A stretch of DNA of 32,000 nucleotides, taken from NCBI RefSeq assembly GCF_000189295.2, contig NC_016803.1, positions 1,860,001 through 1,892,000 of the forward strand. The letters are read 5' to 3'. How positions within the stretch are numbered: position 1 is the stretch's first letter; each line of letters starts with the position of its first letter. The stretch is from Pseudodesulfovibrio mercurii (GTDB lineage: Bacteria > Desulfobacterota > Desulfovibrionia > Desulfovibrionales > Desulfovibrionaceae). Made by a program: the position numbers and the translations under genes. The notes below the pieces were generated by a model that saw nothing but the letters and a program-made list of their open reading frames with translations, was not told the DNA's origin and searched no databases. Below, one piece after another: positions 4,054-31,362 of the stretch.

Positions 4054-5158
4054 CGAGGGCTTCATGGCCCGGGCCGTGGAACTGGCCGGACGCGGCCGGG
4101 GGGCCACGGCCCCGAACCCGTGCGTCGGGGCCGTGCTGGTCCGCGACGGCGTCATCGTGGCCGAGGGATGGCACACCCGATTCGGCAGGCTCCACGCCGA
4201 GCGCGAGTGCCTGGCCGACGCCCGGCGCAAGGGCGTGGACCCGCGCGGGGCGGCCATGTACGTCACGCTCGAACCGTGCAACCACCACGGCAAGACCCCG
4301 CCATGCACCGAGGCCCTCATCGAGGCGGGCGTGGCCGAGGTCTTCGTCGGCACCCGCGACCCCAACCCGGTGGCCGCGGGCGGCGTGGAGAAACTCCGCG
4401 CCCACGGCATCGAGGTCACCGTGGGCGTGCTCGAACAGCCCTGCCGGGACCTCATCGCCGACTTCCTGCTCTGGCAGAACACCCACTCCTGCTACAACAT
4501 CGTCAAGATGGCGGCCACCCTGGACGGCAAGATCGCGGCCGCCGCGCGCAGGCCCGAGCCGGTGTCCTGCCCCGAGTCCCTCGCCCGGGTCCACGACCTG
4601 CGCGCCCTGGCCGGAGCGGTCATCGTCGGCGGCAACACCTTCTACGCCGACAACCCGAGCCTGACCTGCCGGAAAAAGGACCTGCCCCCGGACTTCGTCC
4701 AGCCCTTCGGCGTGATCGTGACCTCGCGCCTGCCCGACGACCCGAGCCGCTTCACCCTGCTGCGCGAGCGGCCGGAGCGGGCCATCTTCATGACCTCCAA
4801 GACCGCGGCCCACAGCCCCCAGGCCGACGTCCTGCGACGGCGCGGCACCTCGGTCTGGCCCATGCCCGGCCGGGCCGGTTCCCTGGTCCTGGCCTGCGGC
4901 TTCGAGCGGCTGCGCTACGACTGCGGCTGCCACTACACCCTGTGCGAGGGCGGCGGCCGGTTCGCCCTGGCCCTCATCGAGCAGGGACTGGCCGACGAGC
5001 TCGTTCATTTCGTGGCCCCGCGCATCCTGGGCGACGATGCCGCCCCGTCGGCCTACTCCGGCCGGGACAACGTGCCCATGGCCGAGGCCCTGGACTTCCG
5101 CATCGCCGATTTCGAGCCCGTGGGCACGGATATCATGCTCACCCTGCGCCGCCGCTAG
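4025..5158 (+). CDS. ribD: Bifunctional riboflavin biosynthesis protein RibD (pyrimidine deaminase / uracil reductase)
   Basis: [34 protein letters not shown] and [12 protein letters not shown] deaminase motifs, plus a C-terminal reductase half. GGAG lies upstream of the ATG at 4025. The gene overlaps the deaminase gene by 29 nt. Confidence 0.93.
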
Positions 5159-6054: not shown

Positions 6055-6123
6055 CGCCCGGATTTACACCCGCCCCCCGGCCTGCTACAACGGGGCCGAA
6101 CAACAAAACGAGGTAGTTATTCC

Positions 6124-6789
6124 ATGTTCACCGGACTGATACTGGGCATGGGCCGCATCGAGGCCGCCGAGGCCAGGGGCTCGGAGACGCGCTTCCGCAT
6201 CCGGGCCCTGTTCGACCTGCACGACATCGAACTGGGCGAATCCATCGCCGTGAACGGCGTGTGCCTGACCGTGGAGACCTTCGGCGACCACTGGTTCACC
6301 TGCTACGCCAGCCGCGAGACCCTGTCCGTGACCAGCCTGGGCGGGCTGCGCCCCGGCGGCACGGTCAACCTGGAGCGGGCCCTGGCCCTGGGCGAGCGCT
6401 TCGGCGGCCACATGGTGGCCGGGCACGTGGACTGTCTGGCCGAAGTGGCCGAGGTGCGCCCGGCGGGCGAATCGAAGATCTACCGCCTGACCTTCGACGC
6501 GGCCCACGGCCGCTACGTCATCCCCAAGGGGTCCGTGGCCCTGGACGGCATCAGCCTGACGGTCAACGCCTGCGCCCCCACCTGGCTGGAGGTCAACATC
6601 ATCCCCGAGACGCAGCGGGTGACGACCATTTCGGGCTGGTCGCCCGGCACCAAGGTCAATATGGAGACCGATGTCATCGGCAAGTATGTGGAGCGGATGG
6701 TCCAACCGTGGACCGGCGGGGGTGACGCCGCCGGAGGCGGCACGTCCGGCGGCATCACCATGGAGTTTTTGCGGAAGAACGGCTTCTAG
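6124..6789 (+). CDS. ribE: Riboflavin synthase (alpha chain)
   Basis: MFTGLILGMGRIEAAE..., with two lumazine-binding repeats (GESIAVNGVCLTV and GSVALDGISLTV). Confidence 0.95.
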   Translation: MFTGLILGMGRIEAAEARGSETRFRIRALFDLHDIELGESIAVNGVCLTVETFGDHWFTCYASRETLSVTSLGGLRPGGTVNLERALALGERFGGHMVAGHVDCLAEVAEVRPAGESKIYRLTFDAAHGRYVIPKGSVALDGISLTVNACAPTWLEVNIIPETQRVTTISGWSPGTKVNMETDVIGKYVERMVQPWTGGGDAAGGGTSGGITMEFLRKNGF

Positions 6790-6828
6790 CCGGAGTTTTT
6801 TTGATAGCCCCCTGCGGTGGGGCAGGAG

Positions 6829-6855
6829 AAGGCACGCCTTGGCGTGCCTTTTTTG
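6829..6855 (+). terminator. Rho-independent terminator of ribE
   Basis: AAGGCACGCC/GGCGTGCCTT palindrome followed by TTTTG. Confidence 0.75.
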
Positions 6856-7819
6856 TTGGGGAAGAAAGAGGGCGGTTTTCGTGGAGACGTGGTCCTGACG
6901 GGAGAGGCTTCGAGAGCCTTTTGCCCTGCGAGGAGAGCCGCTGTGCTGGCTGCGCCCGCACGATGCTCCATGCCCTCCCGGCGGGGTCCATTTTTTTGCT
7001 GGCCCAAAAAAATAGACGAAAAAAAGGGCCTTGCGGGGTACGCGGCCGCCCGGGGAGGGGGCGCAAGAATCCGATCCGCTCGGGGCGGCTCCACCTGAGC
7101 AAAAGTATCGTGCGGCTCCCGGAGCCGGATGGCCCCATTTGAGGAAAACCGAGCTTCGGCAAGACAAGAGCCGCCACCCCTTCGCGGTCGGCTTCTACGC
7201 GCCCCCTCCAGGGCTGAGACGGTGCGGAGAAGAGGTGCTGCTGGACGCGAAGGAGCGGGCTGAAATGCGAGACAGAGAGCCGCTATCGGGTGCCTGAAGC
7301 ACCCTACTCGCACCAACAGCGCGATTTGCAGGCTCTCAATTGTGGATACGGGCCAAAGACGTAAATTCATATTGGAAGAGCCCCAAAAATGGGAGGGGAA
7401 TGCAGTCCCTTCTCCAGCCCATCATCTGGATTTCCTCCGCACATAGCCGCAGATGCGCGGCCCACCCCAACCGCGCTAGCCCCTCTTCGTACCCGGCAAT
7501 CCGCCCTGGCCCACCCCTCACACCCGGAGAGCGGTAGTCGGCGGCGGACCCTAGAGCCCGTGTTCGGCGGCGGGAGCGCAGGTTTGAGCGCGTCTGCGCA
7601 GCAGACATTCGCTCACAACCAGCGGGAGCCGCCTACGGGCTCTTGGGTCCGCCGGCGCGCGGCAGCACCGAAGCGCAGTTTTTGCTTCCTTTTTTCTGCG
7701 CCGGCAAGAAAGGAAGTCGCCGTAAAGGCGAAATACAATGTAAGGAGGACAACCCAAAGCCCGGTCGCGGATGCGCGGCCCGACCAACAAGCTACTCCCT
7801 CTTAAGCTCGCTGCCGGGC
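6856..7819. repeat. ~1 kb noncoding, repeat- and hairpin-rich gap (decayed copies of the composite repeat family plus internal repeats)
   Basis: No ORF here has an RBS or plausible composition. Two H2-like modules occur (GAGCCGCTGTGCTGGCTGCGCCC at 6935-6957 and GAGCCGCTATCGGGTGCCTGAAGCACCC at 7277-7304). A direct repeat GCRGATGCGCGGCCC...CCCTCTT occurs at 7449-7487 and 7767-7803. A 19-bp stem joins 7544-7562 with 7635-7653. Confidence 0.7.
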
Positions 7820-7872
7820 GCGAATGAAAAAAGGGCCGGGAGGTTCACCCTCCCGGCCCTTTTTTCATTCGC
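7820..7872 (-). terminator. Bidirectional terminator downstream of leuS
   Basis: Perfect 24-bp stem GCGAATGAAAAAAGGGCCGGGAGG / CCTCCCGGCCCTTTTTTCATTCGC with a 5-nt loop. The GC-rich core is flanked by an A6 and a T6 run. It lies 12 nt after the leuS stop. Confidence 0.85.
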
Positions 7873-7884
7873 GTTTGGCGGCGG

Positions 7885-10386
7885 TTAGCCGACCACGATG
7901 TTGACCAGCTTGTTGGGGATGACGATGACCTTGCGGACCGTCTTGCCCTCCATGAACTTCTGGACGTTCTCCAGGTCCATGGCGAGCTTCTCCACCTCGG
8001 CCTGGGGGGCGTTGTTCGGGGCCTCGAATTTGCCGCGCACCTTGCCGTTGACCTGGACGACCAGGGTCACCTCGTCCAGGACCAGGGCCTTCTCGTCGAA
8101 GGTCGGCCAGGGCTGGGCGGTCAGGTGGACCGTGTGGCCGAGCGCGGCCCACAGCTCCTCGCAGATGTGCGGGGCCACCGGGGAGAGCAGGGTCACGGCC
8201 GTGGCGATGGCCGAGGACAGGGCCGCCGGGTCGGTCTCCTTGAGCTCGTCCTTGACCTGGTACAGCTCGTTGACCAGCTCCATGATGGCCGCGATGACCG
8301 TGTTGAACTGGAACTCGTTCTCGATGTCGCGGGTGGTCCTGCGGATGGTGTCGTGCTCCTTGAAGCGCAGCCCCTTGGCCGCGTCGTTCGCGGGCTTGTC
8401 GTGGGAGCCGGGCATCATGGGCGTGAGCACGTCCTCCAGCTCCTCCACCAGCCGCCACAGCCGGGACAGGAAGCGGTACGCGCCGTCGATGCCCTGGTCG
8501 GACCACTCCAGCTCCTTGACCGGCGGGGAGGCGAAGAGAATGAACAGCCTGGTGGCGTCCGCGCCGTACTGGTTGATCATGGCGTTGGGGTCGACCACGT
8601 TGCCCTTGGACTTGGACATCTTGCCGCCGTCCTTGAGGACCATGCCCTGGGTCAGCAGGTTGGCGAAGGGCTCGCTGTTGGTGACATAGCCGCAGTCGCG
8701 CAACGCCTTGGTGAAGAACCGGGAGTAGAGCAGGTGCAGGATGGCGTGCTCGATGCCGCCGATGTACTGGTCCACGTTCATCCAGTAGTTCAGGTGCTCG
8801 GCGCCCAGGGCTTCGGTCTCGTTGCGCGGGTCGCAGTAGCGCATGTAGTACCAGGAGGACTCGAAAAAGGTGTCGAAGGTGTCGGTCTCGCGCCGGGCGG
8901 GCTTGCCGCACTTGGGGCAGGTGCAGTTGACGAACTCCTCCATGGTCGGCAGGGGCGACTTGCCGTCCTTGCGCACCTGGGCGTTCTCGGGCAGCAGGAT
9001 CGGCAGGTCCTTCTCGGGCACCGGGACCACGCCGCAGTCGTCGCAATAGATGACCGGGATGGGCGCGCCCCAGAAGCGCTGGCGCGAGACGTTCCAGTCG
9101 CGCAGCCGGTAGTTGACGGCCATCTTGCCCTTGCCGGACTTGTCCAGGTGCTCGACGATGGCCTTCTTGGCGTCCTCGTTGGGCATGCCGTCGAACTCGC
9201 CCGAGTGGATCAGGAAGCCGGGCGCGGTGTACGCCTCGGTCAGGTTCGCGGCGTCGAGCTTTTCGCCCTTGGCCTGGAGTTCCGGCGGATTGATGACCGC
9301 CTGCATGGGCAGCTTGTACTTGGTGGCGAACTCGAAGTCGCGCTGGTCGTGGGCGGGCACGGCCATGACCGCGCCGGTGCCGTAGCCCATGAGCACGAAG
9401 TTGGCGACGTAGATGGGCAGGTCCCTGCCGGTCACCGGGTTGACGCAGTACTTGCCGGTGAAGACGCCCTCCTTCTCCAGGTCGTCGGCCCCGCGCTTAA
9501 TGCGGTCCATGTTCCGGATGTTGGTCACGAAGGCTTCGATCTCACCCTTGTTCGGGGCGTCGGCGATGAATTTCTCGACCATGGGATGCTCGGCGGCCAC
9601 GGACATGAAGGTCGCGCCGTACAGGGTGTCCGGCCGGGTGGTGAAGACGTCGATGGTCGCGTCCATGTCCTTGACCTGGAAGGTCAGCTCCGCGCCGTAG
9701 GACTTGCCGATCCAGTTGCGCTGCATGGTCAGCACGCGCTCGGGCCAGCCGCCCTCCAGGGAGTCGAGGTCGGCCAGCAGCTCGTCGGCGTAGTCGGTGA
9801 TGCGCAGGAACCACTGCTCCATGTCCTTCTGCTCCACCTCGGTGTCGCAGCGCCAGCACAGGCCGTCCTCGACCTGCTCGTTGGCCAGCACGGTGTTGCA
9901 GGTCGGGCACCAGTTCTGCGGGGAGTCCTTGCGGTAGGCCAGCCCCTTTTCCAGGAACCGGAGGAAAAACATCTGCTCCCACTTGTAGTACTCGGGGCGG
10001 CAGGTGGCGATCTCGCGCCGCCAGTCGTAGGAATAGCCCAGCCGCTTCAGCTGCGCACGCATCTCGGCGATGTTCTGGTAGGTCCAGGTGGCCGGATGGG
10101 TCTCGTGCTTGATGGCCGCGTTCTCGGCGGGCAGGCCGAAGGCGTCCCAGCCCATGGGGTGCAGAACGTTGAATCCCTGCATGGTCTTGAACCGCGCCAC
10201 CACGTCGCCGATGGAGTAGTTGCGCACGTGGCCCATGTGGATCTTGCCGGACGGATAGGGGAACATCTCCAGCACGTAGTACTTGGGTCTGGACGGGTCG
10301 GTCTCCACCTGGAAGCAGCCGGACTCCTTCCAGATGGCCTGCCATTTCTTCTCGATGTCCTCGGGAGAATATTTGCCTAATGCCAT
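7885..10386 (-). CDS. leuS: Leucine--tRNA ligase
   Basis: Start [19 protein letters not shown] at the ATG at 10386, with AGGAAAG upstream. HIGH-type motif HMGHVRNY and a KMSKS motif are present. 833 aa. The upstream part of track ORF 7885..11103 overlaps nusB and is not coding. Confidence 0.97.
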
Positions 10387-29811: not shown

Positions 29812-29972
29812 AATCTCGGCCTCACGGTGCTTGGCGGTTGAAGGAACGTAGAAAACTAGCCCATCCCCCATGTACGGTCAACTCCGCCGCACCTCATGGA
29901 AAGTTTCGATTTGACAAAGGGTACTATTGATCTTACCTCTTCTATTCCCGACCCAAATTAGGAGGCATTATA

Positions 29973-30317
29973 ATGATCGAAGTCACCGAAGCTGCCCAGA
30001 AGCAGCTCGAAGGCTACTTCCAGGACAAGGAAGCGTCCCCGATCCGCGTGTATCTCGCGGCCGGCGGCTGAGCGGGCCCGCGCCTGACCCTGGCTCTGGA
30101 TGAGCCTAACGATATGGACGACGTGTCCGAGGCCGGTGGATTCACCTTCCTCGTGGAAAAGGACCTGCTGGCCCAGACCGGCGATATCAGAATCGACATG
30201 ACCTACTACGGATTCGTCGTGGAGTCCCAGAACCCGGTCAGCGGCGGCGGCGACAGCTGCTCCTGCTCCTCCTCGGGTTCCTGCTCCTCCGCAGGCTCCG
30301 GCGGCTGCGGCTGCTAG
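29973..30317 (+). CDS. HesB/IscA-like protein with in-frame UGA (putative selenocysteine, codon 33)
   Basis: The ATG at 29973 is 7 nt after AGGAGG (29960-29965). The frame runs MIEVTEAAQKQLEGYFQDKEASPIRVYLAAGG-TGA(30069-30071)-AGPRLTLALDEPNDMDD... to the TAG at 30315-30317. The track shows only the 3' part (30114..30317), which is in the same frame. It is colinear with the paralog at 30895..31215, where the same position is TGC (Cys). Confidence 0.75.
30092..30106 (+). promoter_or_regulatory. Candidate SECIS apical hairpin
   Basis: GGCUC-UGGAU-GAGCC begins 21 nt after the UGA and has G in the first two loop positions. The equivalent codons in the Cys paralog (GCC CUG GAC GAG GU) cannot form this hairpin. 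Confidence 0.4.
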
Positions 30318-30340
30318 CCGCCAGCTGCCGATACGACGCC

Positions 30341-30658
30341 ATCCGCTGCGTTGCTGCAAAAGGCCCGGACCCTCGCGTATGAAGATACGCTTCGGCCCCG
30401 GGCCTTTTTTGCGCCTTGCGGCTGACGCCGTCTCGACAGCTGGCTCTCGCACGTTGAGGCGGTAAGAAAAAATGCCCGGACTGTTGCGTATGTTTTGATA
30501 CGCTTCGGTCCCGGGCTTTTTTTGCGCCTTGCGGCTCACCACTTCTCGCCAGCTAGCCCATCTCCCGCCAAGGGAATTGGGCGGGACGCGCCCGGACCCT
30601 CGCATATGTTTTGGTATGCTTCGCCCCCGGGCCCTTTTGCGCCTTGCGGCTGACGCCG
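30341..30658 (+). repeat. Three tandem terminator-like units downstream of the Sec-type HesB gene
   Basis: Hairpins GCCCGG...CCGGGC, each followed by a T-run, lie at 30363-30410, 30474-30523 and 30590-30638. Each is followed by GCGCCTTGCGGCT(G/C)AC. Confidence 0.85.
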
Positions 30659-30894
30659 TCTCACGAGTTGGGCCATTTCCATTATATAAAATCGGGCGAG
30701 GCGGGGTGCGGGCGGTCGTTCGCCTGGTTGCGGCTTGGGGCGAGCGGATTTCCGGGGATGAAATTTCAGATTTTTTCAGTCGGGATTACGGCGGGTTGGG
30801 GCGGCCGGATCGGGTTGTGCATCGTTTTTCTCTTTACATCGGATAGATGATCCTTATTGTCTTGGGGAACGAACCCCATCCAGGAGAGAATCAT

Positions 30895-31215
30895 ATGATC
30901 ACAGTTTCCGAATCGGCCCAGAATGAACTGACCAAATATTTCGAGGACAAGGACGTGCAGCCCATCCGGGTGCACCTGGCCGACGGCGGTTGCGCCGGTC
31001 CGCGCCTGTCCCTGGCCCTGGACGAGGTGCGCGAAGGCGACAAGTCCGTGGAGCAGGGAGCCTTCACCTTCCTGATCAACGAGGAACTGGCCCAGGCCTC
31101 GGGCGCGGTCTCCATCGACATGACCCCCTACGGCTTCCAGGTCTCTTCCGAGAACCAGATCGGCGGCGGGGGTTGCGGATGCTCCTCCTGCGGCACCGGC
31201 TCCTGCGGCTGCTAG
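30895..31215 (+). CDS. HesB/IscA-like protein (Cys-containing paralog)
   Basis: The ATG at 30895 follows AGGAGA. MITVSESAQNELTKYFEDKDVQPIRVHLADGGCAGPRLSLALDE...IDMTPYGFQV...GGGGCGCSSCGTGSCGC. The internal Cys plus the C-terminal CGC is the A-type carrier ligand pattern. Confidence 0.88.
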   Translation: MITVSESAQNELTKYFEDKDVQPIRVHLADGGCAGPRLSLALDEVREGDKSVEQGAFTFLINEELAQASGAVSIDMTPYGFQVSSENQIGGGGCGCSSCGTGSCGC

Positions 31216-31231
31216 GCCGCGATAAGCGGCG

Positions 31232-31362
31232 ATCCGCTGCGTTGCTTCAAAAAGCCCGGACCCTCGCGTATTAAGATACGCTTCGGTCCCGGGCTTTTTT
31301 TGCGCCTTGCGGCTGACGCCGTCTCGCCAGCCAGCCCATCTCCCGCCAAGGGGATTGGGCGG
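31232..31362 (+). repeat. Fourth copy of the terminator-like unit (3' flank duplicated together with the HesB gene)
   Basis: ATCCGCTGCGTTGCTTCAAAAAGCCCGGACCCTCGCGTATTAAGATACGCTTCGGTCCCGGGCTTTTTTTGCGCCTTGCGGCTGACGCCGTCTCG is nearly identical to 30341-30435. The tail CCAGCCAGCCCATCTCCCGCCAAGGGGATTGGGCGG matches 30549-30585. Confidence 0.85.

Follow-up and report, generated by a model that had tools for sequence, protein, structure and literature searches.

A HesB/IscA-like gene of Pseudodesulfovibrio mercurii with a probable selenocysteine codon, and its adjacent cysteine paralog

Knowledge of HesB-like selenoproteins goes back to the mid-2000s. A 2026 review gives UxGP as the motif of the family and TIGR01911 as its family model (PMC13188914), and the HesB-like selenoprotein of M. 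maripaludis has been labelled with 75Se (PMC11097638). A HesB-like selenoprotein of D. vulgaris was described by Zhang et al. in 2006 (PMC1794560, supplementary file 4), and the same source lists SelD, Sec-FdhA and HesB-like selenoproteins for both D. vulgaris and D. desulfuricans. Two other groups of proteins serve for comparison, namely the A-type carriers IscA, SufA and ErpA, and the Sec/Cys isoenzyme pairs Fru/Frc and Vhu/Vhc of Methanococcus, which are switched by selenium under HrsM (PMC11097638).

We analyzed a stretch of 32,000 nucleotides of P. mercurii, which is called the window below, and compared one of its genes with these systems. Over 90 residues, the protein predicted from this gene shares 59% identity with the D. 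vulgaris selenoprotein given in supplementary file 4. The two proteins share the stretch IRVYLAxGG-U-xGPRLxLALDEPN, the motif DxTY[YM]GF, the Cys/Gly/Ser tail and the host family. The differences between them amount to ordinary ortholog-level divergence, except that the tail of the window protein is longer and Ser-rich. Compared with IscA, SufA and ErpA, the window protein has the same fold, as judged from a model of its Cys paralog, and the same Cys-Xn-Cys-X-Cys pattern, but the identity is about 20%, Sec takes the place of Cys, the low-complexity Cys-rich tail is longer, and the gene stands outside any isc, suf or nif operon. As in Fru/Frc and Vhu/Vhc, the same genome contains a Sec gene as well as a Cys paralog, and in the window they stand side by side. 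Six of the related loci, in which the two genes are 17-20 nt apart and probably share a transcript, do not fit a simple transcriptional switch.

The gene lies on the forward strand. A Shine-Dalgarno sequence, AGGAGG (29960-29965), was read from the sequence 7 nt 5' of an ATG at 29973-29975. The frame opened by this ATG reaches a UGA at codon 33 (30069-30071), continues in translation for 81 sense codons and ends at a TAG at 30315-30317. A good ribosome-binding site and the coordinates of the ATG, the UGA and the TAG had been proposed by an earlier reading of the sequence only, and all of them were reproduced. When the UGA is read as selenocysteine, the coding sequence (29973-30317) gives a product of 114 residues and about 11.5 kDa in which Sec is residue 33, and residues 33-36 are U-A-G-P, that is, the U-x-G-P motif by which membership in the family is judged. 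Residues 91-114 (30243-30314) form a C-terminal tail rich in Cys, Gly and Ser, which includes C96-S-C98. The GC3 of the gene 3' of the UGA is 0.85, matching that of the real genes of the window, whose G+C content is 66%. In addition, the Shine-Dalgarno sequence is unchanged in all nine aligned upstream regions of Pseudodesulfovibrio-type relatives. We are highly confident that 29973-30317 is one intact gene, which encodes a HesB/IscA-like selenoprotein of 114 residues.

The sequence-only reading had also claimed that such a gene is missed by ORF calling, and public records bear this out. On syntenic JGI contigs, the calls are an ORF of 32 aa, one of 64 aa and, after them, an Fe-S_biosyn gene of 106 aa. 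A protein search returned full-length Cys forms together with about 30 "hypothetical proteins" of 62-68 residues. In the GenBank and JGI records of orthologs (P0029, P0041 and P0011), the C-terminal 62-68 residues alone are annotated, again as "hypothetical protein"; PSDVSF_28900 of P. sediminis and HFN16_03195 of Pseudodesulfovibrio sp. zrk46 are examples of such fragment records. These "hypothetical proteins" of 62-68 residues are C-terminal pieces of miscalled Sec genes. Look-ups of the exact sequences of the Cys paralog, P0017, P0029 and P0041 returned no record.

We then compared the codon-33 column among relatives. A genome scan, in which one genome was taken per species, yielded 80 Desulfovibrionaceae loci, and the closest relatives in it were Pseudodesulfovibrio karagichevae 9FUS (90%) and "Desulfovibrio caledoniensis" lm2024 (89%), the latter being the nearest relative with a complete genome (CP195092.1). 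In total, 87 related loci and the window were re-translated with TGA shown as U. The column was occupied by TGA in 44 distinct genes, which span many genera of Desulfovibrionaceae, and by Cys in 87 distinct genes. The alignment of orthologs at this column had been proposed as a check on the selenoprotein claim, and truncated or decayed orthologs had been named as the outcome that would speak against it; no decay was seen, and the downstream frame was intact in all 44 TGA genes, with neither a frameshift nor an extra premature stop. When the codons 3' of the UGA were compared with those of seven relatives, synonymous and non-synonymous differences were about equal in number. Since about three-quarters of the sites are non-synonymous, this equality indicates purifying selection. 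The claim of an in-frame UGA selenoprotein was thus borne out, in that the same TGA, the same open frame and the same hairpin (described below) recur in 44 distinct genes. Judging from these comparisons, the in-frame UGA-33 is real and almost certainly encodes selenocysteine.

The hairpin in question, a putative core of a bacterial SECIS, occupies 30092-30106. It consists of GGCUC (30092-30096), the loop UGGAU (30097-30101) and GAGCC (30102-30106), and it starts, as had been reported, at the 21st nucleotide after the UGA. It overlies the peptide L-A-L-D-E-P/S. The sequence UGGCUCUGGAYGAGYC is identical in 44/44 Sec genes, and its spacing from the UGA never changes. At least five contiguous pairs were present at this site in all 44 Sec genes and in only 5 of the 87 Cys genes (Fisher p = 1e-29), so that the SECIS claim is well supported: the hairpin is constant in the Sec genes and nearly absent from the Cys paralogs. 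It is also absent from the Cys paralog of the window (30895-31215). The codons that form the hairpin show the same division. Ala41 is GCU, Leu42 is CUG and Glu44 is GAG in each of the 44 Sec genes, whereas among the 87 Cys genes these codons are used in 15, 60 and 27, respectively. Of the 29 Cys genes whose peptide here is likewise ALDE[P/S], only one, in the locus L076, has the hairpin.

According to published rules, a bSECIS has a loop of 3-9 nt, a stem of 4-16 bp, a G in the first two loop positions, a distance of 16-37 nt from the UGA to the loop, and a minimum free energy of -7.5 kcal/mol or below (PMC13188914). The hairpin of the Sec gene has a loop of 5 nt, a stem of 5 bp, a distance of 25 nt from the UGA to the loop and an energy of -8.8 kcal/mol, and in its loop a G at position 2 is followed by another G. 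A comparison with a SECIS model had been suggested, and against these rules the hairpin conforms in every respect. The accompanying claim, that the hairpin was created by synonymous differences from the Cys copy, holds in part. The difference between GCU and GCC at Ala41 is synonymous, but CCU for Pro45 against GUG for Val is non-synonymous. The difference between GAU and GAC in the two copies falls in the loop of the hairpin.

RNA-level controls were flat. Neither RNAalifold nor the counting of pairs in the 44 SECIS regions revealed compensatory covariation, because the 5-bp core never varies. An extended stem between columns 19-23 and 39-43 pairs in a minority of the sequences, no better than in shuffles. 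Since these covariation and shuffle controls were flat, the case at the RNA level rests on the constraint of synonymous sites that is specific to Sec genes. A search of the window against Rfam at gathering thresholds gave no match, including none to a curated bacterial SECIS family.

One Cys-form HesB gene deserves separate mention. At L076:1243-1566, a TGC is followed by an intact and perfect 8-bp hairpin, UUUGGCUC-UGGAU-GAGCCGAA, and the L076 locus contains two Cys genes and no Sec gene. Its sequence suggests that L076:1243 is apparently a recent Sec-to-Cys conversion that has kept a fossil SECIS. A fossil SECIS behind a Sec-to-Cys conversion is known for Desulfitobacterium, as recorded in PMC1794560.

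On the standard bacterial mechanism, the hairpin 21 nt 3' of UGA-33 would act as a SECIS during translation. That is, it would recruit SelB·GTP·Sec-tRNA(Sec), and the UGA would be read as Sec and not as a stop. We looked for the genes required for such decoding. ARAGORN found no tRNA, and hence no tRNA-Sec, in the 32-kb window, and no sel gene lies within it. A crude motif scan of the fetched loci detected no SelA, SelB or SelD motif. With the SelA sequence of D. vulgaris, which the supplement to PMC1794560 provides, as a query, we found SelA in Pseudodesulfovibrio sp., P. tunisiensis and P. indicus (65-67% identity). The support for Sec decoding provided by these sequences is at the level of the lineage, short of proof for the genome of the window. 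A search of the literature for selenocysteine in Pseudodesulfovibrio yielded nothing useful.

Apart from the pair, the window encodes a sensor kinase, DUF4405 and Spy/CpxP-like proteins, deaminases including RibD, a solute-binding protein, riboflavin synthase, LeuRS, RibH, RibBA, a GGDEF protein, a glycosyltransferase, LptE, RadC, Lon, two TPR proteins, HemC, CobT, WcbI, shikimate kinase and a phosphoribosyltransferase. The last two of these, together with CobT, HemC and Lon, are the neighbours of the pair; downstream of the pair, relatives carry an AMP-binding enzyme and an ABC transporter. In this neighbourhood there is no isc, suf or nif gene. Two side observations were made on the window. 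Between riboflavin synthase and LeuRS, a region of about 1.1 kb (6800-7900) lacks a GC bias at third positions, whichever frame is considered, and the ORFs there (6786-7370 and 6085-7167 on the reverse strand, and 7389-7805 on the forward strand) have no Pfam match and no Rfam match. The stop codons of the 26 confident genes are TAG in 15, TGA in 7 and TAA in 4; TAG as the commonest stop looks unexpected at a G+C content of 66%.

Profile scoring placed the protein in its family. In this analysis U was entered as C for the Sec protein. Both the Sec protein and the Cys paralog passed the cutoff of 85 bits of NCBIfam NF038090, "IscA_HesB_Se" (114.4 and 106.4 bits, respectively), as well as the gathering score of 26.3 of Pfam PF01521, Fe-S_biosyn (32.3 and 36.8 bits). 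The two proteins reached 34.5 and 39.8 bits with TIGR01911, HesB_rel_seleno, whose cutoff is 66.35, and the Sec protein is therefore outside that subfamily. TIGR01911 belongs to the same superfamily, and the first ligand position is likewise taken by Sec in a UxGP motif. The HesB-like protein of M. maripaludis is distant from the window protein. Both proteins were also below the cutoffs of TIGR00049 (39.3 against 58.8) and of the equivalog models for ErpA (25.4 against 117), SufA (22.7 against 136) and IscA (19.8 against 151).

The sequence-only reading had placed the UGA on the conserved cluster-ligand Cys of A-type carriers. In a sequence search of the PDB, U33 aligned with the ligand Cys in the GGC(S)G loop of Aquifex Aq_1857, Haemophilus HI1723 and T. 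elongatus IscA, and C96-S-C98 aligned with the C-terminal C-G-C of the same three proteins. That is, the three ligands of the Cys-Xn-Cys-X-Cys pattern are present in the alignment, with Sec as the first. Since residue 33 and C96-S-C98 align with the ligands of solved carriers, the claim is supported. The AlphaFold model of the Cys paralog has a pLDDT of 77.5, and its tail (residues 91-106) is disordered, with a pLDDT below 50. When this model was compared with the IscA and SufA crystal structures 1x0g, 1r94, 1s98 and 2d2a, the Foldseek probability was 1.00 and the TM values were 0.6-0.75. By way of its paralog, this model shows an A-type Fe-S carrier fold as the predicted fold of the Sec product. 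In the alignment, Sec33 takes the position of the first ligand of the cluster or metal, of which there are three, and C96-x-C98 in the flexible Cys-rich tail would supply the other two. We also observed that the position of Tyr78 (30204-30206), directly ahead of [YM]GF, holds Tyr in 40 of 42 Sec forms and His in the other two, while only 31 of 87 Cys forms have Tyr there and many have Pro, Ser, His or Asp. In view of this distribution, Tyr78 may be a Sec-linked residue close to the ligand site.

The TGA could be explained in other ways. The gene would be a pseudogene if a Cys codon (TGC or TGT) had mutated to TGA and the frame downstream were decaying. A single base change turns TGC into TGA, and the intact Cys paralog next door could cover the function. 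However, the same TGA is present in 44 distinct genes of many genera, with intact frames and conserved residues, the GC3 3' of the UGA is still 0.85, and a constraint on synonymous sites specific to Sec genes is not expected from a dead gene. Because 44 intact genes carry the TGA and the codon comparison with seven relatives implies purifying selection, we regard a pseudogene as excluded, its probability being exceedingly small. Another explanation is that the UGA is a true stop, and that a peptide of 32 residues is made beside a separate protein of 67 residues starting at the ATG at 30114, as gene callers annotate it. The public records of 62-68 residues and the JGI pair of 32-aa and 64-aa ORFs agree with such a division. 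Several points make it very unlikely. Residue 48 is Met in the window only and is S, K, N or Q in the other Sec genes, the fragments that have been called begin at assorted GTG, ATG or TTG codons, and no Shine-Dalgarno sequence lies 5' of 30114. Moreover, a C-terminal fragment would miss several parts of the IscA fold, namely its N-terminal strand, the helix and the ligand position.

It might also be supposed that, without any Sec machinery, read-through or reassignment places another residue, such as Trp, Gly or Cys, at the UGA. We consider this extremely improbable. UGA ends 7 of 26 other genes of the window, and there is therefore no general reassignment of the code. The column is otherwise always Cys (87/87), which is the classic Sec/Cys pattern, and a conserved hairpin of the SECIS type stands at the canonical distance. 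Furthermore, the lineage encodes SelA, and SelD and Sec-FdhA are recorded for Desulfovibrio species.

The Cys paralog (30895-31215, forward strand) starts 578 nt downstream of the Sec gene. In translation it has 106 residues, and its TGC at 30991-30993 stands at the Sec column. The match between the two proteins had been described as residue for residue, and it is so: ..IRVYLAAGG-U-AGPRLTLALDE.. in the Sec protein corresponds to ..IRVHLADGG-C-AGPRLSLALDE.. in the paralog, and the core is gap-free. In a rough neighbour-joining tree, Sec and Cys forms were intermixed. In the lineage of the window, the two copies belong to different clades, one Sec and one Cys, each shared with other Pseudodesulfovibrio, and the duplication is therefore old.

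A Sec gene stands beside a Cys paralog, or beside two of them, in 47 of the 85 surveyed sources, an arrangement of which the available part of PMC1794560 makes no mention. The gene order in these 47 is Sec-Cys in 28, Cys-Sec in 16 and Cys-Cys-Sec in 3, and in 37 of the 85 sources the Cys gene is alone within 3 kb. These fractions are biased because the genome scan required a Cys codon. Three later look-ups were unbiased, since they started from Sec fragments: one locus is a pair (L085), one is a pair with a frameshifted Cys copy (L087), and one is a solitary Sec gene that belongs to a more distant lineage (L086). In L087 the Cys paralog 3' of the Sec gene (4360-4720) is apparently frameshifted twice, and no gene is called there; this could be a decaying copy or the result of long-read indel errors. 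The survey shows that a Sec gene beside a Cys paralog is widespread in Desulfovibrionaceae.

Sites resembling promoters were seen 5' of both genes. That of the Sec gene (29911-29939, forward strand) comprises TTGACA (29911-29916), a spacer of 17 nt and TACCTC (29934-29939). Its TTTGACAAA and TACCT are invariant in nine aligned upstream regions of the Pseudodesulfovibrio type, and a consensus scan passed over it because the -10 element is weak. The same type of scan found a putative sigma-70-like site for the Cys paralog (30833-30860, forward strand; TTTACA, 16 nt, TATTGT), which is conserved in the four closest relatives.

Terminator-like hairpins with T runs, all on the forward strand, follow both genes. 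The first copy, 3' of the Sec gene (30352-30412), has an energy of -30.7 kcal/mol (z = -4.7) and is a member of the repeat families D2-D4. The second (30462-30526) has -34.1 kcal/mol (z = -7.5), the third (30578-30642) is degenerate (z = -0.1), and the fourth, 3' of the Cys paralog (31243-31306), has -30.4 kcal/mol (z = -4.4). That is, an element of about 110 nt with a hairpin and a T run is present three times in tandem after the Sec gene (30329-30680) and once after the Cys paralog (31220-31335). Its copies at 30329-30440 and 31220-31331 are 91% identical, compared with 71-77% for the two coding regions. In close relatives the number of copies is 1+1 (L001), 1+2 (L003) or 2+1 (L005), and in L006 three copies lie elsewhere in the locus. 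These observations suggest a REP-like, expandable terminator element.

Since each gene in the window has its own promoter-like site and its own hairpin with a T run, independent regulation is permitted there. In six loci of gut-type Desulfovibrio (L053, L068, L072, L075, L078 and L079), the Cys gene is followed by the Sec gene with a gap of 17-20 nt, and genes so close together are probably co-transcribed. The spacing in these six loci therefore argues against a universal transcriptional switch. In eukaryotes, ISCA1 and ISCA2 form a heterodimeric A-type carrier. It is conceivable, although we think it rather unlikely, that the Sec and Cys copies are non-redundant, either as a heterodimeric carrier that binds a cluster or metal through mixed Se and S ligands, comparable to ISCA1/ISCA2, or as a selenium-responsive pair of isoforms. 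Selenium-dependent use of the isoforms may be put forward as a hypothesis, to which the heterodimer is an equally open alternative.

Taken together, the Sec gene is a correctly identified member of an already known selenoprotein family. That the family is not new had been said in the sequence-only reading, and the model NF038090, the D. vulgaris ortholog of 2006 (PMC1794560) and the 2026 review (PMC13188914) agree with it. Since descriptions of the family, and of a Desulfovibrio ortholog, date back some twenty years, the finding is ordinary, though correct. Its main consequence is a correction of annotation: gene callers and some GenBank records split the gene into an ORF of 32 aa and a "hypothetical protein" of ~64 aa, and the correct product is a selenoprotein of 114 residues. 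What the survey adds is the nucleotide-invariant SECIS, the wide occurrence of adjacent Sec and Cys genes, and one fossil SECIS behind a TGC. The pair leaves the knowledge of the family unchanged, and it offers a handy natural setting in which to study the contribution of Sec at a position that would bind an Fe-S cluster or metal.
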